DNA of 64,000 nt. Origin: a phage. The DNA lies in the NCBI GenBank assembly GCA_030980935.1, contig GCA_030980935.1_3059.1; one strand, 5' to 3'. This document shows, piece by piece, positions 10,667 through 57,285 of the stretch. Position numbers and translations under genes: made by a program. The notes under the pieces are model-generated. The model made no database searches. It saw only the letters and a list, made by a program, of their open reading frames with translations, and was not told the origin of the DNA. Position 1 is the first letter of the stretch. The number at the start of each line of letters is the position of its first letter.

Positions 10667-11302
10667 TCACAGTTCAGATGCTACGGTGATTACTGCTTCA
10701 ATGTTTTCTTCCGAGCGTTTAATGTCAAGATACACATTACCGTTTTTAGCGATTTTACATGACATTCCGATATCAGTAAATTTCTGAATATGATGTTCCA
10801 TCATTTTGTATCCAAAAATTCGCATATTTCCATTGTTGTTAATTTCAAAATTGCGAATTCCGTGAGTGCGTTTTTCTAAAATAGCGAGATAGTTACTGCG
10901 ATAAGTTTCAACCTTTTTAAGAACAAATCCATTTTCATCTAAAAGTTTTAACATGAGGTCTTTATCTTCTTCCATATCAGAAGTAATTTCGCGAGCTTTA
11001 CGAGTTGCTCGTTTTTTCAGCAGTTCAGGAGCGTTTTCCTGTGCGTATAAAGTTGCTGCATTTGAAATAATATCCTGGGCTTCACCTGTAATGATTAATC
11101 CATCACCAGATTTCTCCACCAGGCCTTTTTTAATCAATACCCCAATATTACTATTAACTACTGCGTTACCTAAATCTGGATGCACCTCACGAACTTCTGC
11201 AGCTGTAATGAAATCTTTCTTAGCAATAGTAATTAAAATCGCAGCAGTTTTTTCATTCAGAACATCGTTAGAAGCTTTGATGATGTAAGTTACTTTAGAC
11301 AT
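10667..11302 (-). CDS. motA: Middle-promoter transcription activator MotA
   Basis: 211 aa as T4 MotA; position between arn cluster and gene 52. Confidence 0.9.
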   Translation of the reverse strand: MSKVTYIIKASNDVLNEKTAAILITIAKKDFITAAEVREVHPDLGNAVVNSNIGVLIKKGLVEKSGDGLIITGEAQDIISNAATLYAQENAPELLKKRATRKAREITSDMEEDKDLMLKLLDENGFVLKKVETYRSNYLAILEKRTHGIRNFEINNNGNMRIFGYKMMEHHIQKFTDIGMSCKIAKNGNVYLDIKRSEENIEAVITVASEL

Positions 11303-11400
11303 TTTCTAATCTCCGTAATTCTGTATCAGTAGTTGATAGTTGTATAGTACCACAGTATGCTTTGGTTGTAAACCGTTTTGTGAAAAAATTTTAAAATAAA
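11303..11400 (-). promoter_or_regulatory. Early promoter cassette upstream of motA
   Basis: Conserved block gtagttgatagttgtatagtacca plus GTTTAC -35-like element. Confidence 0.5.
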
Positions 11401-14352: not shown

Positions 14353-14452
14353 AGTAAACGTTTAATACATCAATCATTAAAACGATTGGGAATATACTCA
14401 AAACTACTAGTATTATAACTACATTCCATATAGCTTTAACAATCTTTTTCAT
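14339..14452 (-). CDS. Small membrane peptide (about 37 aa)
   Basis: Track ORF 14339-14587 runs through a promoter cassette; likely true start is ATG with SD GGAGG giving MKKIVKAIWNVVIILVV... Confidence 0.4.
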   Translation of the reverse strand: MKKIVKAIWNVVIILVVLSIFPIVLMIDVLNVYFGFM

Positions 14453-14695
14453 TTTCTGTTCCTCCGTAGTTGATAGGGTAATAGTACCACGGAAGAACAG
14501 TCTTGTAAACAACTTTTTTAAAAATATTCGTAATAAATGTGAATACCAACTACTACCGCTGAAACCTGTGCAACCCACCACGCGCAAGCAATAAGTACAG
14601 AATTCAAAATTTTCATAATAACCTCATTACAAAAGTAAATGTTAAACAAATTAATGGAATACTAATTAACCAAACGAAACACCACCATAGTGAAC

Positions 14696-14968: not shown

Positions 14969-15171
14969 TAATCCGCTAAAAGATCGACGATTGCATCACG
15001 AAGACACTTATTCGCAATACGTTTAAGGGCAATTTCAGTTTCTGGAGCATTTTGAATAATCATCGAATTCAACTCAGCCTCAGCAAACTGAAGTTCTTTA
15101 ACTAGTTCAGCTTTATATTTCCCTTGCCCTTTCTTAGCCTTTGTCCGTTTTAATTCAGCTGTAGTAAACAT
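14965..15171 (-). CDS. Hypothetical protein (68 aa)
   Basis: Track N-terminus MENKM is a TTG artefact; true start is the ATG in conserved GGAGAATAAAATG. Confidence 0.5.
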   Translation of the reverse strand: MFTTAELKRTKAKKGQGKYKAELVKELQFAEAELNSMIIQNAPETEIALKRIANKCLRDAIVDLLADY

Positions 15172-15250
15172 TTTATTCTCCAAATCCGTATTAGTTGATA
15201 GTTGTATAGTACCACAGTCCTTGTGGTATGTAAACTGTTTTATGAAATTT
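15172..15250 (-). promoter_or_regulatory. Early promoter cassette (PeSL-like)
   Basis: Near-identical to the 11303, 23146 and 43358 copies; ends in GGAGAATAAAATG. Confidence 0.5.
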
Positions 15251-15252
15251 TT

Positions 15253-15810
15253 TTAAATAGAAAGATACCATCCATTGTAGTTGCTTTTTCTTACAACCTT
15301 ACGAAGGTCTTCTCTGTCACCGATGAACTTCGGAGTGTACTGGATGACACCTGGGTGAATTTCTTTAGTGTTGAATATAATTATACAGTCAGCGACCTGA
15401 TGATTCAGAATGGGCCCTAGATTTATTCCAGAACCATATGGATACTCTCCGCTGCATCCTGTTGTTACCGAAATCCAACGTGAGTCAGTTTGATGTGTCT
15501 TAACTTCTACACGAAGCCCACAGTATTTTGGATGCGCCAATACATCCCATGCGTATGTATACGGGTCATTAACATCCTCTTGGCCTTTATTAACATACCC
15601 GCTTAGCCAATCTGCTACAAAAAACTCTGCGTACACAGCGATACGGCATCTTTCGATAACTTCTGCCTTATCCTGGTTCGGATTTTGTTTTAAAGAGTAT
15701 CTTGCTGTATCAGCAATTTTGACCTTCATTTCACTAGTCAAGTCACTGTTCGATAGAGTAAATGTCGGAATCTGAAATAGTCTCTGTAAACCCGGATTCG
15801 TTTTCTGCAT
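15253..15810 (-). CDS. denB: Endonuclease IV DenB
   Basis: 185 aa as T4 DenB; position upstream of rIIB. Confidence 0.85.
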   Translation of the reverse strand: MQKTNPGLQRLFQIPTFTLSNSDLTSEMKVKIADTARYSLKQNPNQDKAEVIERCRIAVYAEFFVADWLSGYVNKGQEDVNDPYTYAWDVLAHPKYCGLRVEVKTHQTDSRWISVTTGCSGEYPYGSGINLGPILNHQVADCIIIFNTKEIHPGVIQYTPKFIGDREDLRKVVRKSNYNGWYLSI

Positions 15811-17070: not shown

Positions 17071-19248
17071 TTAGGCCGCAAGGGCCTTCATAGTTTTAGC
17101 GATTTGAGAAACTTCATCATCACTTAAAGAGTTGCGATAACCGATGAAGTCGGAAACAATACGGAATTTCTTGGTAAACTCAGCAACCATTTTATCACTA
17201 TTTTTTGAAGCATTATTTGACAATACATCAAAAAGATTAGTTACTGTCCAGATGTCATGACCGATGGTACCTTTTCCACCGTTGAAATATATGCCCTGTA
17301 ATGAACTAACCATATTACCAAGGCGAGTATATTCTTCAGAAACTTCATCTACACTGAAGTACTTCATCATAAAATCTAGTTCAGGATACTTAATAATTTT
17401 ATCAATATATCGTTTAGCTGAACTTGAATAACCTACATACTTATCATAATCTACAGCATCAAAAGCATCTACATATAAATCACGCAGAGTTTCAAAAATA
17501 CATTGGCACTGACCGAGTTCTTTTACCTTTTTCTGTAAAAGCGGACGAATAACATAAAATTCATTAATGCCAATAAGATTAGCCATACGAATCAAAATAT
17601 TCATAGATGGATGACAAAGTGATGTAGTACCATCCATAGAGAAAATATCAGAACGATGCATATACGCTACATAACCAGTAATTTCATCTGCTTCTGACGT
17701 AAGTGTAAATAATTCCTCTTTTTCCCAACGCCCATCTTTAATTTCAAACTTAAATGCTGTAGCAGCTTTAGGACGAGGAGCTTTACTTTTAACTACCTTT
17801 GGAATATAGCTTTTAACTAAAGCTTCAATTTCTGACAAATAATGAATGTTAACTTCATCACTTTCAAACATTGCCATAATATCAGGAAGCAAATCAATCT
17901 GCGATTCTACTTCTGGATTAATAAACAGAAGGCGTTCGTTGTGATGAATATTCAAAGTGTTATTAAATTCACTATCATCTAACGCATGTGCTAATCCACG
18001 GACAATATTAACACGATTTTTAATATTATCAATAACGATATTAATTTTTGTTGTATTAATACCAAACAGACGATAACTTGATGCAACGGCTGAAGTTTCA
18101 TGGCTTTGCTTAATGCGTTTCAGTCGAGGGTCAAGATTTACTTCATACACAACTCCTGCATTGCATAACTTACTGTCAGGTTCAAACATGCTCTGCATTT
18201 TCTTATATGACAGATTTTTAGTCGTGAATTTGACTGAATTACTAATCATATAATCTCGAGCAGAATACCCCATCTTCATCAATTCACGATATGTGTGACG
18301 AGGAGATGTAGATTCTTTAAATCGTTTTACATCTTCATTAAATGCTTTCTCACTAAGCTCTTTAACTCGTTCAATAATATTTTTACGAGTGCGATCATCT
18401 AATGAAAGAGCTTCACGTGATGGAGCAATATCAAGTGAACCCATTGGAAATTTAATGTAATTCACTTCATTGCGAATGCTTAGCCAGTTACGGTCTCTAA
18501 TAACACCATCGATAGGATAAACAATACCGCCATAGATAGCATATAATCCACCACGATCTGGCCAATATCTTTCTGGATTTACGCCATAATAATCATCAAA
18601 ATCCGGAAAATAATCAATTTCGCGGTCAAGACCATTAATGATAGCCAAATCTTTGAATGGTCGCATGATATAAGAAACTTCATAAGCAAAGTTTCTAAAG
18701 TCTTTTTCTTCAACTGGAACTACGATTTCAATACCAGTTTTATCATTTGGACCCATTTCTTTTACGAATGTAGGTTTAATTTGTGGACCATCGCCATCCA
18801 TGTAAGCTACATAACCACGAATTTCACCTTTATGATACGAAGTAATACTAAACGTATCAGTATAACTAAACGGAGATTTAGAACCTAAACCAAATCCGCC
18901 AATAAAGTCATTAGATTCAGCCTTAGATGAACTGAAGTATGAATTATACAAACCAGGAGAATTATCATCACCCTGAATATCAAAATCACTCATACCCGGA
19001 CCAAAATCTCGGCAAACAAATCGTGGATCTAAACGTCCAGGAACTTGAATGATAAATTTTTCAGGATTTCCATTGAGAGCATGGGCATCAATCATGTTGG
19101 TAATCAATTCACGAACAACTGCGCGAATCTTATTTGTATACAAATCAGATGACAGAATTTTAAATACTTTAGGATTTGCTGCGATGCTAAATGCTTTTGA
19201 TTTAGAACCATTGCCAAGAATTGTTTCTTTTTCAGTGGTGATAATCAT
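17071..19248 (-). CDS. rIIA: rIIA protein
   Basis: 725 aa as T4 rIIA; GHKL-ATPase-like N-terminus. Confidence 0.9.
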
Positions 19249-19258
19249 AATTTCCTCA

Positions 19259-22875: not shown

Positions 22876-23145
22876 TTAATTAAACATTGGAGCGATACGT
22901 TTCAGAAGAGTAGCAGCACCTTTAGCGAATTTTACATCATGAAAAACAGTTTCTTCTTCTGTAACAACTCGAACTTTAATATTTTCACAATCCCAATTTT
23001 TACGAACAATCTTCAAAAGCTGCAGTAAATCTTTACATTCAGCAATATCGATAACACATCCACGAGAATCTTCCATTATCGCACGATAACCGTAAGCCAT
23101 ACCATAATCGTTAAAAGATTGCTCGATGATAATTAAGTTTTCCAT
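22876..23145 (-). CDS. Hypothetical protein (89 aa)
   Basis: Track start MENKM is a TTG artefact; true ATG in GGAGAATAAAATG downstream of promoter cassette. Confidence 0.5.
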   Translation of the reverse strand: MENLIIIEQSFNDYGMAYGYRAIMEDSRGCVIDIAECKDLLQLLKIVRKNWDCENIKVRVVTEEETVFHDVKFAKGAATLLKRIAPMFN

Positions 23146-23240
23146 TTTATTCTCCAAGTTGTTTTCTGTATCAGTAGTTGATATTGATATAGTACCATAA
23201 TCAACTACTGATGTATATAGTTTTATGAAAAAAATTTAAA
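23146..23240 (-). promoter_or_regulatory. Early promoter cassette (PeSL-like)
   Basis: Repeat copy; ends in GGAGAATAAAATG. Confidence 0.5.
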
Positions 23241-23242
23241 CT

Positions 23243-23734
23243 TTATGCATAGCGAGCTTTGCTGTAGTGTTTAATCCAACTTTCAGGAATGACTTTGTAT
23301 GTTCCTAAAAATACCGTGTTGTACAGCTTAACACCGTCTTCTACCCACTGATCGGTAATGTATGCGCACATAGCACGAGTACGGTTAACAACCCCTTCCT
23401 CACCTTCAGTAAATTCAAACTCATAAGGAGCAACGAACTTAATAGCTTGACCGAGTTTCCACTTAAAGTCTACGCCTACATGCGAAGTATCAATCGTTTC
23501 AATTCCTTTAGCAGGAACAGCTTTTAAAAACGCAGACTCAAGAAATTTCGCACGAACATAGCCAAACTGGGGTTTAGACTTTCCATCTTTAGGAATGATA
23601 CGCACTTTTACTTCAGAATCTTCATCTTTAACACCGTGTTTAAGCTGAATGCTTACAACTTCAACCAATTTTCCTGCTGCTTTAGAACGGGATTTATCAG
23701 ATACACGAGCTAATTCACCAATATTAATAATCAT
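23243..23734 (-). CDS. motB: MotB-like protein
   Basis: 163 aa (T4 MotB about 162), position before dexA. Confidence 0.55.
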   Translation of the reverse strand: MIINIGELARVSDKSRSKAAGKLVEVVSIQLKHGVKDEDSEVKVRIIPKDGKSKPQFGYVRAKFLESAFLKAVPAKGIETIDTSHVGVDFKWKLGQAIKFVAPYEFEFTEGEEGVVNRTRAMCAYITDQWVEDGVKLYNTVFLGTYKVIPESWIKHYSKARYA

Positions 23735-40737: not shown

Positions 40738-41586
40738 TTAATCAACTGCTATTGGATGAATAGCATTAAACTTATGAAATGCTTCTGATTTTTCTTTACG
40801 CGAAACACACATGCGAAGAACCTTTAATGGCTCGTCTTCTTCACCCAACGATTTTCGTTTTTCAATATTCGATGTTTTCCAACGAGCTTGCTCTGGAAAC
40901 TCTCTATTGATCTGCTCAAGCGCTCTATTATGTTTAGAATTACTACGAATTGAACTGCACCCGCCAGGAGCTTGTGCTTTTCCAGATACAACCAGATATT
41001 TGAACAAGGCCAAATGCGGATAACCTTGATTAATTAAATTGAGAAATGCATACATATCTTCGCACAAATCAATTTTTCCATACCCAATTTGTTCTGTCGT
41101 AAGTTTTCCAAGGTCATACCATGTATTCGTGAATCCATATGAATTTTCACGATAATTACCCCAAGATGAAGTAATTTTAAAAATTGGTAGGCGAGCATGA
41201 CCATGATAATACCCGCAATCCATGGCATCTTCGACGTATTGAATCAATTCATAGAACTGTTCATGAGTCAATTGATTGACTTTATCTACACATCGGCGAT
41301 CATCTCTTTTTCGCATTGAACTCATACGAATAGTAGTATCATCGTCAATCATCCAGATTCGTTGACCTGCATACATATCAGTAATTGCTTTACGAGTACC
41401 GGCAATTCCGTTTACATCATCAGGAATAGTTATAATTTTAGCTCTAGACCCATAAGCATCATAATAAGCTTTTTCTTCGTGTTCACGCACTACAATATGG
41501 GGTTCATAATCAGTCGGAAACATATCAAGGGCAGAAACTGCCCCAACACGCTGATAGCTTGGAATTACGAATTGAATCATTTCCAC
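40738..41586 (-). CDS. GT-A-type glycosyltransferase at the beta-gt locus (not T4 beta-gt; possibly T2/T6-type beta-alpha-gt)
   Basis: 282 aa; DxD motif IWMIDDDTTIR; occupies the slot between uvsX and gene 42. Confidence 0.55.
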   Translation of the reverse strand: MEMIQFVIPSYQRVGAVSALDMFPTDYEPHIVVREHEEKAYYDAYGSRAKIITIPDDVNGIAGTRKAITDMYAGQRIWMIDDDTTIRMSSMRKRDDRRCVDKVNQLTHEQFYELIQYVEDAMDCGYYHGHARLPIFKITSSWGNYRENSYGFTNTWYDLGKLTTEQIGYGKIDLCEDMYAFLNLINQGYPHLALFKYLVVSGKAQAPGGCSSIRSNSKHNRALEQINREFPEQARWKTSNIEKRKSLGEEDEPLKVLRMCVSRKEKSEAFHKFNAIHPIAVD

Positions 41587-42317: not shown

Positions 42318-42470
42318 TTAAACCTCAATTGATACATTCATATTTAAATTGTAACAGTAATAAACCCCAACCTAAAATAATAGTTGGAATCATAAGAGGA
42401 ACCGTTACACTATAGTATATACTTATTATAATCATCAAGATTAAAAGCAACACTGTTATAATTTTGCTTT

Positions 42471-42722
42471 TCATTCCTTCTCTCTGATGATAATTACCTG
42501 ATTTGGCTGTGCAGACTTTTTAGTTTCACCCGCAATTGACCAAATAAATGTAATAAACCAACCAATAATTGACCAGTTAAACAGTAAAGATGTGAAAAAG
42601 ATTCCTACTGTCGATTTTGACCCACGCATCAAGGCGATAAACCATGGAAGCATGTATATAATAATAGCCAACACACCTGAAACTAAAACCATAAAAATTG
42701 AACCTGCTACTAAAGTTTCCAT
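42471..42722 (-). CDS. imm: Superinfection immunity protein Imm
   Basis: 83 aa, two TM segments, position 42-imm-43. Confidence 0.8.
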   Translation of the reverse strand: METLVAGSIFMVLVSGVLAIIIYMLPWFIALMRGSKSTVGIFFTSLLFNWSIIGWFITFIWSIAGETKKSAQPNQVIIIREKE

Positions 42723-42729
42723 GTTTTCC

Positions 42730-43110
42730 TCACTTAGTCAAATTTTTTACGCATGAATTATAAGAATTCACTACATACTCCATCGGAGCATTTTTACCAG
42801 TACGCCATTGGTAATTATTGGCCCAATTAGCCCAAAGCTCGGCGCAGTAGTTTTCAATTTTTTCTTCGCGTGTAATTACATCCGAATTACGATATGCTTG
42901 AGCAGATTCATCTGGACGAATAGCTTCGTCAAAATTCGCCTGCATTTGTTCGACTGTTTGCTTTGGAGCTTCTTTATAACACTTGACATTAGGATTATAA
43001 AATTTGCTTGAACAGTTTACAATTTTTCCTGCATCAGACTGATTTACTACCGGTCCTTGAGCTACACAACCAGTAAGACCTAATGCAATAACCAAAATAG
43101 CGATTTTCAT
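42730..43110 (-). CDS. Putative lipoprotein (imm.1-like)
   Basis: 126 aa; signal peptide with lipobox LTGC. Confidence 0.55.
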   Translation of the reverse strand: MKIAILVIALGLTGCVAQGPVVNQSDAGKIVNCSSKFYNPNVKCYKEAPKQTVEQMQANFDEAIRPDESAQAYRNSDVITREEKIENYCAELWANWANNYQWRTGKNAPMEYVVNSYNSCVKNLTK

Positions 43111-43120
43111 AATAATTTCC

Positions 43121-43357
43121 TCAAATGCAAGTAGTAATTACTCCAGTAGTGCTTATGCAGGTATTACCCATTTGCACACCTAAAGATCCATTTGTATTCA
43201 CATGAAGATTATCATCAATTTTAACTGATATTTTACCATTAGTGTGAATAACGGTGCTAGATTTAATCACAGGTTGAGTATCATTTTCAACACTAACAAA
43301 TGGAACTGCTACTAATGCAACTAAACAAACTGCTAAGCATCCCATAACAATTTTCAT
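43121..43357 (-). CDS. Small secreted protein (78 aa)
   Basis: True start MKIVMGCLAVCLVALVAVPF after TTG artefact; signal peptide; own promoter cassette. Confidence 0.5.
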   Translation of the reverse strand: MKIVMGCLAVCLVALVAVPFVSVENDTQPVIKSSTVIHTNGKISVKIDDNLHVNTNGSLGVQMGNTCISTTGVITTCI

Positions 43358-43440
43358 TTTATTCTCCAAATCTGTATCAGTAGTTGATAGTTGTATAGTA
43401 CCATGGAAGAACAGTCTTGTAAACAGTTTTGTGAAAATTT
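43358..43440 (-). promoter_or_regulatory. Early promoter cassette (PeSL-like)
   Basis: Repeat copy with GTTTAC -35 and TACTAT -10-like elements; ends in GGAGAATAAAATG. Confidence 0.5.
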
Positions 43441-43511
43441 TTTAGGGAATTCTAAAGATCCAGAATCATCTGTTTTTCATAAGTATAGATTTATATTACT
43501 TGTATGAAAAA

Positions 43512-43527
43512 GGGACCCGGAGGTCCC
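43512..43527 (-). other. Stem-loop downstream of gene 43
   Basis: GGGACC-CGGA-GGTCCC. Confidence 0.5.
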
Positions 43528-43540
43528 TAGATTTATTCTA

Positions 43541-46237
43541 TCAGCCAAACAGGAAGTCTAACGAAGCTTTTTCTTCATAGTCCATACCAGCCGATTCACA
43601 CATGCCCGCAAGCGGTTTAACAAACGATTTTTGGAACAAAGTTGAGTAGTCAATCCAAGACAGTACGTCAGAACGAATTTCTTTTGGAAGTTCTGTACCC
43701 GACGGCCAAGCAATGCACTTGTCACCAAATGGATTTCCTTCACGCAATGGAAGAACCATTACTTTATTTCCATCCAAAATTGGAGCTACACCCAGACCAC
43801 TAACAGCTCGACGATAAGTTAGCACCCCACGAATATGGAACGGGCATTTAAATCCTGGCCAACCTTTATCATCATATTTCGCTATATCGTTCGCAGTTTT
43901 TACTTCAGCAATAACTTTATAGTCAAGTTGACGATATTCTTTCTCGAAGTTTTTGTAATATTCTTGGACAGACTCTTCACCTTCCTGAAGAATACGACGA
44001 ATACTTTCTTCGAGAGCTTCTTGAACCGCTTTAGGCGTTGAACTTTGCTGAGTTTCCATACCCATGATTTTTAGATGCGGTTCAGCAAATCGCTTATCTT
44101 CCATATCATAAACGTTCAGAGCATAACGCTTTTTCGCTTTCCAAAATCCACCGACACCCTTTGAACCAAGCGGAGGGCAAGAAATAGCTTCACGGTCCAT
44201 ATGCATCAGATGCTCGCGGTTATTCATATAATCACATAACTCACGATATGCAACATCAATCATAGGTTCCATCTTTTTCTTACCGAACTGATTCATGAAT
44301 TCAACTAAATCGTTCTGCTCTTTGAATCGGTCAAGACCAACTTTTTCAATAACTTTATCTACACAAACATATACCGAATCAGTATCACCTGCTGCAATGA
44401 AATCTTCGCCATTAGTTCCGCATACTTTATTCAGATATTCATTAATTTTACGAGCAATCCACTGAATACCAACTTGGCCGAAAATTGTGATAGCAGTAGC
44501 ATTTCGCAAATCATAGTAACGGAAATGAATATTACCAAGAGCACCATAAAGACTGTTAATAAGAATTTTACGGTTCAGCTGATTTGTGTTAGCAAGTGTA
44601 GCCGCTTTTTCACATTCTTCAATCAAACTATTGAGAACAGATTCAGTATAATTCGATAGTTCATTTAAGAAATCATCACTGAACTTAACATATCGTTCAA
44701 CTTCAGGTTTAGTTGAACAAGACCCTGCGCCTTTCATAATAATCTTTTTAATAGCTTCGGCATTCATTTCTTCAGCGAACATTTTCTTTTTCCAATCTTT
44801 ACGCTGGAAAAATACTTTAGCGATTTCCTTTGGAATGATACCTTCTTGATGCTTATCGTACATCCATCCATTCGGAGAACAAGAATATTCATCACTCGGT
44901 TTAGGAGCTGTTCCTGCGATATATTCATGAATTGGATGAACTTTAAACTGACCACGAATAGTCTCAGGACTAATGTTAACCTGACGAATAATGCTCGGAT
45001 ACAGAGACGTCAAGTCAAAACTCATAATATATCGACGAGCAATTGGTTTAGGTTCAAACACAAATGCACCCGGAAAACTCTGTTTAACATGCGAACCTTG
45101 TTGAGGAATAACCTTGTGTTCACCTTTCAATGAGTTAAAAATAATAGCATCCCAGGTTTTAATAGGACTCATTACACCAGAAAAAGGCATTTTAGCGTAA
45201 TAAGACATACTTAAAACTAGATCGATAAACCCGCGAATTTTATCAATTGCTTGAACTGATTCTACGTCAATGATGTTATAACTAATGTATCGTTGATGAT
45301 TAGTCTCACGAAGTTTATTAATAGGACCGTCGTATGGTAATTTACCTTTTTTGGTTTCATGCTGAGCAACTGATTCCAAAGAGAATGACGGCAAATTAGT
45401 AAATGCGAATTTCTTATACAAATCTAAATAATCAAGAATAGATACGCCATCAATAGAATAAATTTCTTTGCTACCGTACATATTTTGGATAAGTTTAGAT
45501 TTTACTCGACCGATTGGAGAGAAGCGTTTCATACTACGTTCACCGAGAACCATTTTAACGCGATTCATGATATACGGAACGTCAAATCCCTCAATATTCC
45601 AACCAGTAAAAATAGCAGGTCGTTTCTGTTCCCAGAGATTGATATATTCCATGAGCATATCACGCTCATTATCGAATGGCATATAAATTACTCGGTCAAG
45701 AATTTCTTGAGGAACTTCATCACCACCTTCACAGTCAAGCTTAGCAGCTAACTTTGCATCCCATTTTGATACTGAACCATACATTGAATTCAAAAGGTCG
45801 AAAACATAAAAACGATCATCAATTGAATCATAATGAGTGATAGCATCAATTTCATATTCAGCTTTCATTGGGTCAGGAAATTTATCACCAGTAACCTCAA
45901 TGTCACAGTTAGCTACACGAACAAATTTTCGGTCATAAACAATTTCTGAACCGTATGTATCACTGATATAAGCGAGTTTAAAATCGTTCATACCGAGAGC
46001 TTCGAGACCGATGTCTTCCATTCGTTTCATCCAATCTCGAGCATCTTTCATTGATGGAAATTTTTGAGGAGCGCAGTTTTTACCATAGATGTCTTTGTAT
46101 TTTGACTCTTCCTTACAATGCCTAAACATAGTCGGAAGATATTCTACTTCACGAGTACGTTCCTTTCCGTTTTCATCAATGTAACGTTCAACAATGTTAT
46201 TTCCAACTGTTTCGATAGAGATATAAAATTCTTTCAT
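43541..46237 (-). CDS. 43: DNA polymerase gp43 (family B)
   Basis: 898 aa as T4 gp43; exo motifs and polymerase motifs (YGDTDS). Confidence 0.95.
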   Translation of the reverse strand: MKEFYISIETVGNNIVERYIDENGKERTREVEYLPTMFRHCKEESKYKDIYGKNCAPQKFPSMKDARDWMKRMEDIGLEALGMNDFKLAYISDTYGSEIVYDRKFVRVANCDIEVTGDKFPDPMKAEYEIDAITHYDSIDDRFYVFDLLNSMYGSVSKWDAKLAAKLDCEGGDEVPQEILDRVIYMPFDNERDMLMEYINLWEQKRPAIFTGWNIEGFDVPYIMNRVKMVLGERSMKRFSPIGRVKSKLIQNMYGSKEIYSIDGVSILDYLDLYKKFAFTNLPSFSLESVAQHETKKGKLPYDGPINKLRETNHQRYISYNIIDVESVQAIDKIRGFIDLVLSMSYYAKMPFSGVMSPIKTWDAIIFNSLKGEHKVIPQQGSHVKQSFPGAFVFEPKPIARRYIMSFDLTSLYPSIIRQVNISPETIRGQFKVHPIHEYIAGTAPKPSDEYSCSPNGWMYDKHQEGIIPKEIAKVFFQRKDWKKKMFAEEMNAEAIKKIIMKGAGSCSTKPEVERYVKFSDDFLNELSNYTESVLNSLIEECEKAATLANTNQLNRKILINSLYGALGNIHFRYYDLRNATAITIFGQVGIQWIARKINEYLNKVCGTNGEDFIAAGDTDSVYVCVDKVIEKVGLDRFKEQNDLVEFMNQFGKKKMEPMIDVAYRELCDYMNNREHLMHMDREAISCPPLGSKGVGGFWKAKKRYALNVYDMEDKRFAEPHLKIMGMETQQSSTPKAVQEALEESIRRILQEGEESVQEYYKNFEKEYRQLDYKVIAEVKTANDIAKYDDKGWPGFKCPFHIRGVLTYRRAVSGLGVAPILDGNKVMVLPLREGNPFGDKCIAWPSGTELPKEIRSDVLSWIDYSTLFQKSFVKPLAGMCESAGMDYEEKASLDFLFG

Positions 46238-47250: not shown

Positions 47251-48210
47251 TCACTTCCACTGCATTTCACATGCTAACTGAATGAAAAGATAAGCTAGAT
47301 GCAATTCAGTATTAGCTGCAATACCATGATACTGATTATTTTCGCCGACAATTTCGTACATACGAATAATACTTTGTGGAGTTACACGTGAATAGATTTC
47401 TTCGGCAAGTTTACCCACGAACCACGAATAATCGGCTGCGTATTTTGGTGCTAAAGCTCTGAGTTGTTTAACATCTTTATTTTTGAGAGACTCAAGAACA
47501 TCATCAATAGCACCACGATCGTTAGTAACCAGTGATAAAATACCAGCATCCAAAACACCTTTAGATGAATAACTATCGAGCTCGCCAATAGTTTTACGAA
47601 AATCAGGAAAATTCTTTTTAACCAAAGCTGCTACAACTTTCATATCAGCTATAGCAATTCCTTCATGCTTACAGATTTCAGTCAACCGACGAATCATCTG
47701 CTTCATCATTTCAATTTTATCTTCATCGGTCGGTTGACCGAATGTGATAACTCGACAGCGTGACTGAAGCGGTTTAATAATACCATCAATATTGTTAGCA
47801 GTAATAATAATACTACAGTTTGAACTATAAGCTTCCATAAAGGAACGAAGATGTCGCTGAGATTCTGCTAAACCTGAACGGTCAAATTCATCAATAACAA
47901 TTACCTTTTGACGACCATCAAATGAAGCGGCGCTGGCAAAATTAGTCAAAGGACCACGAACGAAATCAATTTTACAATCTGATCCATTCACAAACATCAT
48001 ATCAGCATTTACATCATGACACAATGCTTTTGCTACAGTTGTTTTACCTGTTCCTGGAGAAGGAGAATGAAGAATAATATGTGGAATCTTACCTTTACTT
48101 GTAATAGATTTAAAGGTTTCTTTATCAAAGGCGGGAAGAATACATTCATCGATAGTAGATGGACGATATTTCTGTTCAAGAATGTGTTCTTTTTCATTTA
48201 CGGTAATCAT
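47251..48210 (-). CDS. 44: Clamp loader ATPase gp44
   Basis: Track TTG start trimmed to ATG (MITVNEKE, 319 aa); Walker A SPGTGKTT. Confidence 0.9.
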
Positions 48211-48245
48211 AATTTCCTCATTCAAGTTTTAGTGTAAATTATAAA

Positions 48246-56807: not shown

Positions 56808-56939
56808 TTAAATTTCCCAATTACCATTTTCATCAATGAATTTAATCCAGTCATTTACTGACCACTTAGTTGTATCGCCTTTTGGAGTAACATTTAAAGT
56901 ATATAGCCCTTGCTTAAAAAGCATTCGTTTGATATTCAT
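56808..56939 (-). CDS. Small hypothetical protein
   Basis: Track ORF 56808-57023 overlaps upstream gene; probable internal start MNIKRMLFKQG. Confidence 0.35.
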   Translation of the reverse strand: MNIKRMLFKQGLYTLNVTPKGDTTKWSVNDWIKFIDENGNWEI

Positions 56940-56946
56940 AATTTCC

Positions 56947-57285
56947 TCAGCTGTAACGATAACACTCGTTTGATTTACGTTTAGCAACTCGTTGAGAAGT
57001 ATTATAATCAAAATCATCGTCAATGTAAACTGATTTTTTCAACTTTCTTACTTCACCACGTAATTGGCGATTTAGCTCATCTTTAACTTCTGAATCAATA
57101 CCTTTCATTCTACGCCATTTATCTGAGCGAAAAATGTTTTCAACCATATCTTTATGACTTACCCCATCAGGAGCTTTACGCTTTCCGAAATAGTCATAAT
57201 CACGAACTTTCAAGTCTTTACGACGATACGTTTTACCCATGGAGTTTAATTTCCTTAGCAACTGAACTAAATACAGCACGATCAC
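56947..57285 (-). CDS. Hypothetical protein
   Basis: 112 aa ORF, basic. Confidence 0.5.
   Translation of the reverse strand: MIVLYLVQLLRKLNSMGKTYRRKDLKVRDYDYFGKRKAPDGVSHKDMVENIFRSDKWRRMKGIDSEVKDELNRQLRGEVRKLKKSVYIDDDFDYNTSQRVAKRKSNECYRYS

Follow-up and report, generated by a model that had tools for sequence, protein, structure and literature searches.

ORF78, an optional early accessory gene in the slot between gene 43 and imm.1 of Tequatrovirus phages

The locus considered here lies between gene 43 and the superinfection immunity genes imm.1 and imm of a T4-like phage, and it raises the question of whether the small open reading frame (ORF) found there is a real gene and, if so, whether its product belongs with the immunity proteins encoded next to it. 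The window, i.e., the whole stretch of 64,000 nucleotides (nt) that was analysed (GenBank assembly GCA_030980935.1, contig GCA_030980935.1_3059.1), is a segment of a Tequatrovirus (T4-like) genome, and its 42–43 region is 99.4% identical to that of phages teqdroes and NBEco003. The ORF in question, ORF78 (78 amino acids and a TGA stop; positions 43121-43357, minus strand, ATG at 43357 and TGA at 43121-43123), is a member of PHROG 4189. According to the results presented below, ORF78 is a genuine early accessory gene, optional in Tequatrovirus and present also in some Dhakavirus phages. In the window, the unit that carries it occupies a recombination hot-spot slot, which has the gene 43 terminator and the early promoter on one side and imm.1 on the other. 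It is an ordinary mobile early accessory gene, not a new kind of system. The best explanation overall, to which we would give somewhat better than even chances, is a mobile early accessory cassette whose product would be exported and serve as a stand-alone envelope factor.

The position and length of the ORF and its N-terminal sequence, MKIVMGCLAVCLVALVAVPF, had been given correctly in the first-pass annotation of this DNA, as had its placement between gene 43 (43541-46237, minus strand) and imm.1, which starts at 43110. The same annotation knew of no gene at this place in T4, and this was borne out: the 43–imm.1 interval measures 183 bp in T4 and 430 bp in the window, and alignment of the T4 RefSeq genome with the window showed a clean gene-sized indel of about 248 bp. 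The Shine-Dalgarno (SD) sequence of ORF78, GGAG, is located 10 nt ahead of the ATG; a TTG-extended version of 82 amino acids, present in the mechanical ORF list, was judged unlikely because its TTG lies inside this SD. No paralogue of ORF78 was found in the window by tblastn. An RNA element in place of a gene was considered and rejected, Rfam having yielded just a sub-threshold chance match.

The family to which ORF78 belongs is small and restricted to related phages, and it bears the marks of a real gene. Residues 1-78 aligned with positions 1-71 of the 71-position PHROG 4189 profile (E=4.3e-30), and the Dhakavirus homologue also matched this profile (E=1.2e-10). The ORF78 protein is represented by 14 clusters at 90% identity in an index of 5.8 billion proteins, and an exhaustive phmmer search of the 58-amino-acid exported part against 1.84 billion representatives added two further true clusters with 52–58% identity; the match to P0016, a repeat protein of 1124 amino acids (phmmer E=4e-10), was discarded as an artefact in which nine short matches are summed over a Thr/Gly/Ser-rich repeat. 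The cross-genus homologues, 52–60% identical, come from the Dhakavirus phages dhabil, dhaeg and CLB_P2 and from metagenomic wastewater contigs. Between the two main Tequatrovirus allele clades, the ratio of non-synonymous to synonymous substitution rates (dN/dS) in the exported part was 0.30–0.41 (10–16 synonymous and 16–21 non-synonymous differences), which is below neutrality (Fisher p about 0.01–0.001). Moreover, all length variants are in frame, being +21 nt duplications in the hydrophobic segment and one +6 nt insertion, the latter adding "ID" to the allele at locus L013. The synonymous distance (dS) between the same genome pairs was 0.3–0.56 for ORF78 and 0.05–0.24 for the adjacent imm.1, i.e., two- to sixfold larger for ORF78, so the ORF78 alleles either predate the sequences that flank them or have been swapped between genomes by recombination.

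Comparison of the 43–imm interval across T4-like phages revealed three states of the slot. A scan of IMG/VR with Imm.1 gave five loci only, and the counts were therefore made in INPHARED with GenBank/RefSeq duplicates included, so that they refer to records and not to distinct phages. The region is held by 519 phage records, 503 of which are covered by the three states. ORF78 fills the slot in 326 records (tblastn), including the window, teqdroes and AR1; an unrelated ORF of 83 amino acids (RB51ncORF048c, PHROG 18567; at least 95% identity) does so in 31, including T2, RB27, RB51 and RB68; and the slot is empty, with a T4-type direct junction, in 146, including T4, T6, RB3, RB7, RB14, RB33 and RB55. 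A separate check of RB32 likewise found no gene in the 43–imm.1 slot.

The boundaries of the three states indicate how they are related. T4 and the window are nearly identical over the terminator, the promoter and the leader with its SD, as far as the 8-bp repeat ATGAAAAT, at which T4 enters imm.1 and the window enters ORF78; the window has a second copy of the repeat at the imm.1 start, about 248 bp past the first one, and the empty state is a fusion at this repeat. The T4-type empty slot would most simply be a secondary loss by deletion between the two start sequences. Direct evidence for recombination via these repeats is the scar in Shigella phage CT01 (OK018184.1; locus L012, 309-1146, to be compared with 43110-43400 of the window), where a truncated ORF78 and a duplicated leader are found. 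The order in CT01 is promoter, imm.1 codons 1–32 fused to the middle of ORF78 (about residues 31–64), a second -10/leader/SD and intact imm.1, and the record annotates two overlapping artificial coding sequences of 101 and 179 amino acids.

The RB51-type ORF (locus L004, 2182-2433) has no hydrophobic segment and no sequence relationship to ORF78. It lies in the same slot and ends with the same 3' junction, GAGGAAATTATT-ATG of imm.1, its breakpoint being inside the leader and that of ORF78 at the start codon. Both occupants are optional, and both have another slot in Dhakavirus. In this second genus, the neighbours of the ORF78 homologue are a DUF7277/DUF7275 gene on one side and a PHROG 1843 gene on the other, and genes for a membrane protein, nudix e.1 and lysozyme e follow downstream. 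As in the window, an early-type promoter immediately precedes it; it has the same SD, GGAGAATAAA-ATG, and is followed by nearly the same 3' junction, TGAGGAAAATATT-ATG, ahead of a different gene. The recurrence of these junctions after the RB51-type ORF and after the Dhakavirus homologues indicates that the junctions travel with the cassette. The PHROG 1843 gene, sought as a clue to the origin of the cassette, is absent from the 64-kb window. The Dhakavirus homologue of the 83-amino-acid ORF (57% identity) was observed just downstream of rI and rI.-1 (locus L019, IME08).

Upstream of ORF78, transcription of gene 43 is ended by a Rho-independent terminator hairpin, AGGGACC-TCCG-GGTCCCT followed by TTTTT (43511-43528, minus strand; terminator scan), with an RNA folding energy of -14.5 kcal/mol (z=-2.6), which is kept in T4, RB51 and CT01 and is the stem-loop half of a PeSL-like element. 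It is followed by a T4-type early promoter (43395-43423, minus strand) with a -35 sequence (G)TTTACA, a 17-nt spacer and a TG-extended -10 sequence TACTAT, upstream of which an A/T-rich tract extends to about 43445. This promoter fits the PST/T4 PeSL consensus TTTACW-N17-TAYWAT (PMC4122927), and both it and the terminator have been annotated independently in the sister phages ASO78A and fPS-65. Next comes a conserved leader (43358-43394, minus strand; an approximately 31-nt 5' untranslated region) that includes the SD and was delimited by blastn self-search and alignment. Further copies of the promoter/leader/SD cassette, sharing as many as 33 identical nt, stand in the window at about 11350, ahead of motA, and at about 14500, 15200 and 23180, ahead of other ORFs; these copies (11279-11399, 14416-14536, 15141-15261 and 23124-23244, minus strand) precede motA (start at 11302) and small ORFs of 68, 37 and 89 amino acids. 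The first-pass annotation had assigned ORF78 its own conserved early promoter cassette. The early promoter is indeed present and the cassette is a repeated one, but it is not private to the ORF, because an identical promoter with the same leader and SD precedes imm.1 and drives imm.1–imm directly in T4.

This arrangement resembles the PeSL-ORFan cassettes described earlier (Arbiol et al. 2010, PMC2839356; Comeau et al. 2014, PMC4122927), in which a stem-loop terminator and a strong early promoter stand upstream of a small lineage-variable ORF. As in those cassettes, the motif ahead of ORF78 is repeated in the genome, close relatives may have the ORF, lack it or have another one in its place, and another slot is used in another genus. 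Cassette recombination, including excised mini-circles, has been shown experimentally for RB49/phi1 (PMC2839356). There are also differences. The window has one PeSL-like element, upstream of ORF78, and a 13-nt SD junction downstream; no second promoter or stem-loop was found downstream of ORF78 at the locus, so the two-sided PeSL flanking is lacking, CT01 having a second leader copy. The T4-type deletion has its end-points at the 8-bp repeat at two start codons and not inside PeSLs, and the stem-loop and the promoter are about 80 nt apart in the window.

The sequences around both ends of ORF78 suggest when it would be translated. The SD with its 3' context, GGAGAATAAAA (43357-43367, minus strand), is an exact match to the strong intergenic RegB cleavage consensus GG*AGRAYARAA (Uzan and Miller 2010, PMC3014915). 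Three matches to this consensus occur in the window against 0.45 expected, every one of them in copies of the same cassette; two of the other copies share the exact RegB-consensus SD. Such an SD predicts a short burst of ORF78 synthesis after immediate-early transcription. A candidate RegA operator, AAAATTGTTATG (43343-43354, minus strand), covers codons 2–5 (AAAAUUGUUAUG, +4 to +15), which equal the first 12 nt of the 15-position RegA consensus aaAAUUGUUAUGUAA obtained by SELEX, a consensus that no T4 message matches exactly (2010 review, PMC3014915). This exact copy is the sole one in the window, and with one mismatch allowed there was no enrichment (5 found, 2.3 expected). The site is taken as a lead only, because the AUG it contains is not that of the start but codon 5, at which many alleles have Tyr.

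At the other end of the gene, the 3' junction TGAGGAAATTATT (43111-43123, minus strand) combines the ORF78 stop with the overlapping GAGG SD of imm.1. The 11-mer GAGGAAATTAT within it is found at 43112-43122, 48209-48219, 19247-19257 and 56938-56948 (minus strand), i.e., four times against 0.15 expected, and every copy is a ribosome-binding site, among them that of gene 44, which is the classical RegA operator. In the window, imm.1 thus has as its SD, GAGGAAAUUAU, the 11-mer that gene 44 uses for ribosome binding, and the presence of the ORF78 cassette changes the translation signal of imm.1 from the RegB-type GGAG of T4 to the gene-44-type GAGGAAAUUAU. At imm.1 this 11-mer exists only in occupied-slot phages, and the state of the slot may therefore alter the regulation of imm.1 translation.

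The ORF78 product consists of an N-terminal hydrophobic segment and a small exported part. A Met-Lys start is followed by 19–21 uncharged, mostly hydrophobic residues, so that both a positive n-region and a hydrophobic h-region are present, and the export/anchor segment proper (residues 3–23, IVMGCLAVCLVALVAVPFVSV; 43289-43351, minus strand) has an insertion free energy summing to about -1.5 kcal/mol over 19 residues (Hessa scale). The sequence LVALAAVPF within it is invariant across Tequatrovirus and Dhakavirus, whereas Dhakavirus has Ser in place of both Cys residues of the segment. An AXA-like site, A14-L15-A16|A17, occurs in most alleles, but it is placed within the hydrophobic run, and a good -3/-1 pair is lacking after Pro19 in every allele (PFVSV/PFIDI). 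In-frame 21-nt tandem duplications of the CLVALA(A/V) unit (L009, L011, L018, P0005, P0011 and P0012) lengthen the hydrophobic run to 26–33 residues; these seven-residue additions favour a retained anchor, or at least great tolerance of length. The "clear signal peptide" of the first-pass annotation is clear as a hydrophobic export segment and overstated as a signal peptide, since the segment may or may not be cleaved. A lipoprotein was rejected for the window allele, in which VMGC ends at residue 7 and is too N-terminal, LAVC has Val at -1 and there is no Pfam LPAM_1 match. The +7 duplication alleles alone create LAAC, which explains the UniRef name "Lipoprotein" of one cluster.

The remainder of the protein (43124-43288, minus strand) comprises a variable linker (residues 24–33) and a strand-rich domain extending to residue 78, with Cys67-x9-Cys77 at its end (codons at 43157-43159 and 43127-43129). 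A short Cys-containing mature part had been noticed from the letters alone, and it does contain two Cys residues that are conserved in the Tequatrovirus and Dhakavirus clades, within the C-terminal motif GN(T/V)C(I/V)STTG-x4-C kept across both genera. Two AlphaFold2 (AF2) models gave a helix at residues 4–16, a low-confidence linker at 17–32 and six short strands at 34–77; in the second model, the mean predicted local distance difference test (pLDDT) score per 10-residue block was 69–75 for residues 41–70 and 69 for residues 71–78. The Cys pair in an exported strand-rich tail would fit a periplasmic disulfide, and export of the ORF78 product to the envelope, or its anchoring there, is very probable.

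The travelling unit comprises the early promoter, the leader with its GGAG SD, ORF78 and the GAGGAAA(A/T)TATT SD for the next gene. From the gene, the cassette and the slot states described above, which are well supported, we infer the following course of transcription, RegB shut-off, topology and role. Host RNA polymerase would transcribe ORF78 right after infection, and RegB cleavage within the SD would end its translation in minutes, RegA possibly helping. The N-terminal hydrophobic segment would insert in the inner membrane with the N-terminus in and the C-terminus out, and would either stay as an anchor or be cut near ALA|A, leaving a strand-rich domain of about 55 residues, stapled by a Cys67–Cys77 disulfide, exposed to the periplasm. 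There its most likely role would be that of a stand-alone envelope factor, in phage–phage competition (rival exclusion) or against envelope-associated host functions, and not as a subunit of Imm/Imm.1.

Several findings weigh against this account and must be set beside it. About one-third of the genus does without the gene, and the dN/dS of ORF78 is far above that of the adjacent imm.1 (0.02–0.19). Cys67 is replaced by Tyr in some natural alleles (among P0003, P0006 and P0010), and P0010 carries a compensated double frameshift that rewrites residues 48–57 in the strand region; such alleles may be decaying copies or sequencing errors. Patchiness, damaged alleles and high dN/dS together fit a weakly constrained function. 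The direction of the indel, i.e., loss in T4 versus gain elsewhere, is inferred and carries no date. The AXA motif of the window allele is degraded (ALV-A), and the mean pLDDT of the AF2 models is low, 52, and 61 with the cross-genus alignment, the alignment being shallow. Finally, no function-bearing homologue or fold match for ORF78 was obtained with Pfam, the Protein Data Bank (PDB), phmmer, Foldseek or PADLOC: PADLOC gave just a noise match (E=0.013), neither the sequence alone nor its profile matched any PDB sequence, and Foldseek comparison of the AF2 models with BFVD and PDB gave family members only, or noise at E>0.1. A fibre-shaft-like triple beta-spiral repeat, prompted by the TNGxhxVxh spacing and a weak adenovirus-fibre match (E=0.6), was rejected. 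The self-repeat score against shuffles was not significant (p=0.04 for the window allele, 0.22 and 0.26 for two homologues), and the adenovirus-fibre match was lost in the profile search.

An envelope role of ORF78 is nevertheless plausible. Export to the interface of inner membrane and periplasm, immediate-early and probably transient expression, patchiness among near-identical genomes, deep allelic divergence under moderate constraint, and mobility between slots and genera are hallmarks of an envelope-acting arms-race accessory gene, and a role in superinfection exclusion or in evasion of envelope defences is possible on the grounds of location and timing, not of neighbourhood. Our best guess, offered tentatively and with odds well short of even, is a stand-alone factor of phage–phage competition or exclusion. 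In a more specific and speculative form, which we think has a modest chance at most, ORF78 would be a third, hitherto unrecognised T-even superinfection-exclusion or inter-phage competition factor, namely a disulfide-stapled, strand-rich mini-domain tethered to the inner membrane, produced in a burst limited by RegB and binding a periplasm-exposed tail-tip, tape-measure or host entry component of rivals. Below this best guess come, in this order, counter-defence, hitch-hiking and lysis timing.

A counter-defence factor, directed against a membrane-embedded or periplasm-sensing anti-phage system of the host or a prophage, or against the exclusion protein of a rival prophage, appears rather unlikely. 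Its attraction is that the gene is patchy among near-identical genomes, has a larger dS than imm.1 and a relaxed dN/dS, moves between slots and genera and has immediate-early expression signals. Against this, searches of Pfam and PADLOC gave no similarity to known anti-defence or defence proteins, the record summaries show no host-specific distribution, and the location of the product fits other envelope roles equally well.

The first-pass annotation had suggested an added envelope or periplasmic factor, for example in superinfection exclusion. In its strict form, in which ORF78 is an added component of the Imm/Imm.1 machinery and joins the other products of its operon in blocking the entry of superinfecting DNA, this idea has a little less in its favour than counter-defence and is likewise improbable. 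The gap from the ORF78 stop to the start of imm.1 is just 10 nt long, and the terminator scan found no terminator in it. Downstream, on the same strand, follow imm.1 (42730-43110, minus strand; a PF17578/DUF5481 lipoprotein by Pfam match, with lipobox LTG|C), imm (42471-42722, minus strand; the PF14373 superinfection immunity protein, also by Pfam match), 42.1 (42325-42474, minus strand; a hydrophobic ORF of 49 amino acids, PHROG 3610, overlapping the imm stop) and gene 42, also on the minus strand. ORF78 would therefore be the first cistron of an ORF78–imm.1–imm–42.1 message, in the same operon as imm and in the company of envelope proteins throughout. T4 Imm and Sp are immediate-early, and ORF78 would share their timing. 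It would also sit in the compartment where Imm acts, since Imm-dependent exclusion has been described in T4, with Imm binding the incoming tape measure protein at the inner membrane (preprint 10.64898/2026.03.06.709160).

The functional tie itself was not supported by comparison of the genomes. Imm and Imm.1 are identical or one to two residues apart whatever the slot holds: the window, RB51 and RB32 have one and the same Imm sequence, which is one residue off T4 Imm, and the Imm.1 proteins of RB51, RB32 and T4 are one to two residues off the window copy, so that no co-variation with the presence of ORF78 was seen across the ORF78, other-ORF and empty-slot phages compared. T4 and T6 lack ORF78, and the slot can hold an unrelated ORF without any hydrophobic segment. 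In Dhakavirus, imm directly follows gene 43 and the ORF78 homologue is elsewhere, unlinked to imm; the order in Gaprivervirus is 43–imm, that in Mosigvirus dmd–imm.1–imm–sp, and that in Gelderlandvirus and Jiaodavirus 43–(lipoprotein or 147-amino-acid protein)–imm, with no member of the ORF78 family in the Mosigvirus, Gelderlandvirus and Jiaodavirus arrangements. The imm.1–imm pairing also occurs in Gelderlandvirus and Jiaodavirus, which suggests that Imm.1 is the true functional partner of Imm. The conserved pair is imm.1–imm, ORF78 being a Tequatrovirus-specific lodger ahead of it, and the link of ORF78 to superinfection immunity is weak. At the protein level, ORF78 gave no Pfam matches at E<=1, including PF14373 (Imm) and DUF5481 (Imm.1), whereas its neighbours match PF14373 and PF17578 strongly. 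T4 Imm and Spackle are, like ORF78, small immediate-early envelope proteins; Imm has a pair of membrane helices, and Spackle is helical and located in the periplasm. For ORF78, by contrast, a strand-rich structure is predicted, and it has no sequence or fold similarity to either. It is found in the imm operon here, but T4 Imm works without it.

Some side observations were made on these neighbouring genes. In the Mosigvirus phage PhAPEC2 (locus L025, 1171-2206), dmd–imm.1–imm–sp–61.2 are contiguous and form a compact exclusion cluster away from gene 43. The 42.1 ORF is conserved, and T4 also has it (locus L001, 4228-4377), in a 153-bp stretch left unannotated in T4 RefSeq, and the T4 RefSeq label "iduronate sulfatase" for imm.1 finds no backing in the DUF5481 match and lipobox seen here. 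A sigma-70-like match, TTGTAA-N17-TATAAT (10/12), at 42994-43022 (minus strand) within the 5' part of imm.1 could be an internal imm promoter or a chance occurrence in AT-rich DNA. Downstream of gene 42, a 282-amino-acid beta-glucosyl-hydroxymethylcytosine-alpha-glucosyltransferase of the T2/T6/RB51 type is encoded at 40738-41586 (minus strand), its listed GTG start overlapping the gene 42 end; T4 has a beta-glucosyltransferase there.

ORF78 could also be an essentially dispensable ORFan, a hitch-hiker carried along by a mobile promoter cassette and doing little or nothing at present, and this we consider decidedly unlikely. The gaps in distribution already mentioned, which include T4, T2 and T6, would be expected of such a passenger, as would the damaged alleles with the CT01 scar among them, a tiny lineage-restricted family with only two further clusters among the 1.84 billion representatives, and a dN/dS several-fold above that of the neighbours. 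This is countered by a dN/dS significantly below 1, by the intact state of the gene in most of the 326 records, and by the preservation of the frame, the Cys pair and LVALAAVPF across two genera at 52–60% identity.

In T4 RI, an N-terminal hydrophobic segment takes a small C-terminal domain to the periplasm. That ORF78 acts, in the manner of RI, on the holin/antiholin system and so modulates the timing or the inhibition of lysis is very improbable, for although ORF78 shares this outline architecture and the other slot occupant has its Dhakavirus homologue beside rI and rI.-1, that neighbour is a different protein, ORF78 itself was never seen near lysis genes, it resembles RI, RIII and T neither in sequence nor in fold, and its segment is much more hydrophobic than a signal-anchor-release domain.

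For the preferred account, a stand-alone envelope factor on a mobile early cassette, a point of comparison is offered by T5 Llp, a short early envelope-exported protein that shields the infected cell from other phages (PMC9586334). The likeness is an analogy only: proteins of the Llp/Cor type are lipoproteins that block an outer-membrane receptor, and ORF78 has no valid lipobox in the window allele and no similarity to them. Much about ORF78 was known already, namely hundreds of deposits as "hypothetical protein", its PHROG membership and a published mode of movement, and its architecture contains nothing unprecedented among T4-type early ORFans. In the literature, no paper was found that names the family, RB51ncORF048c or PHROG 4189.

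T4 is the reference of its genus, and genes that it lacks tend for this reason to stay "hypothetical protein" in hundreds of therapeutic and environmental isolates. ORF78 is a case in point, being the majority state of the 43–imm.1 slot and yet invisible in the reference phage. Should no phenotype turn up, it would simply be another T4-type ORFan; its predicted export to the envelope and predicted early burst make it a well-defined candidate, and one that costs little to examine, for effects on superinfection, co-infection outcomes or host range in phage cocktails. The locus is at the same time a tidy natural case of cassette shuffling, in that its slot has three states, a scar of recombination is preserved, and a second genus has the ORF with the same SD junctions. 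If ORF78 were indeed a third exclusion factor, its allelic diversity and patchiness would mirror phage-against-phage arms races within Tequatrovirus.

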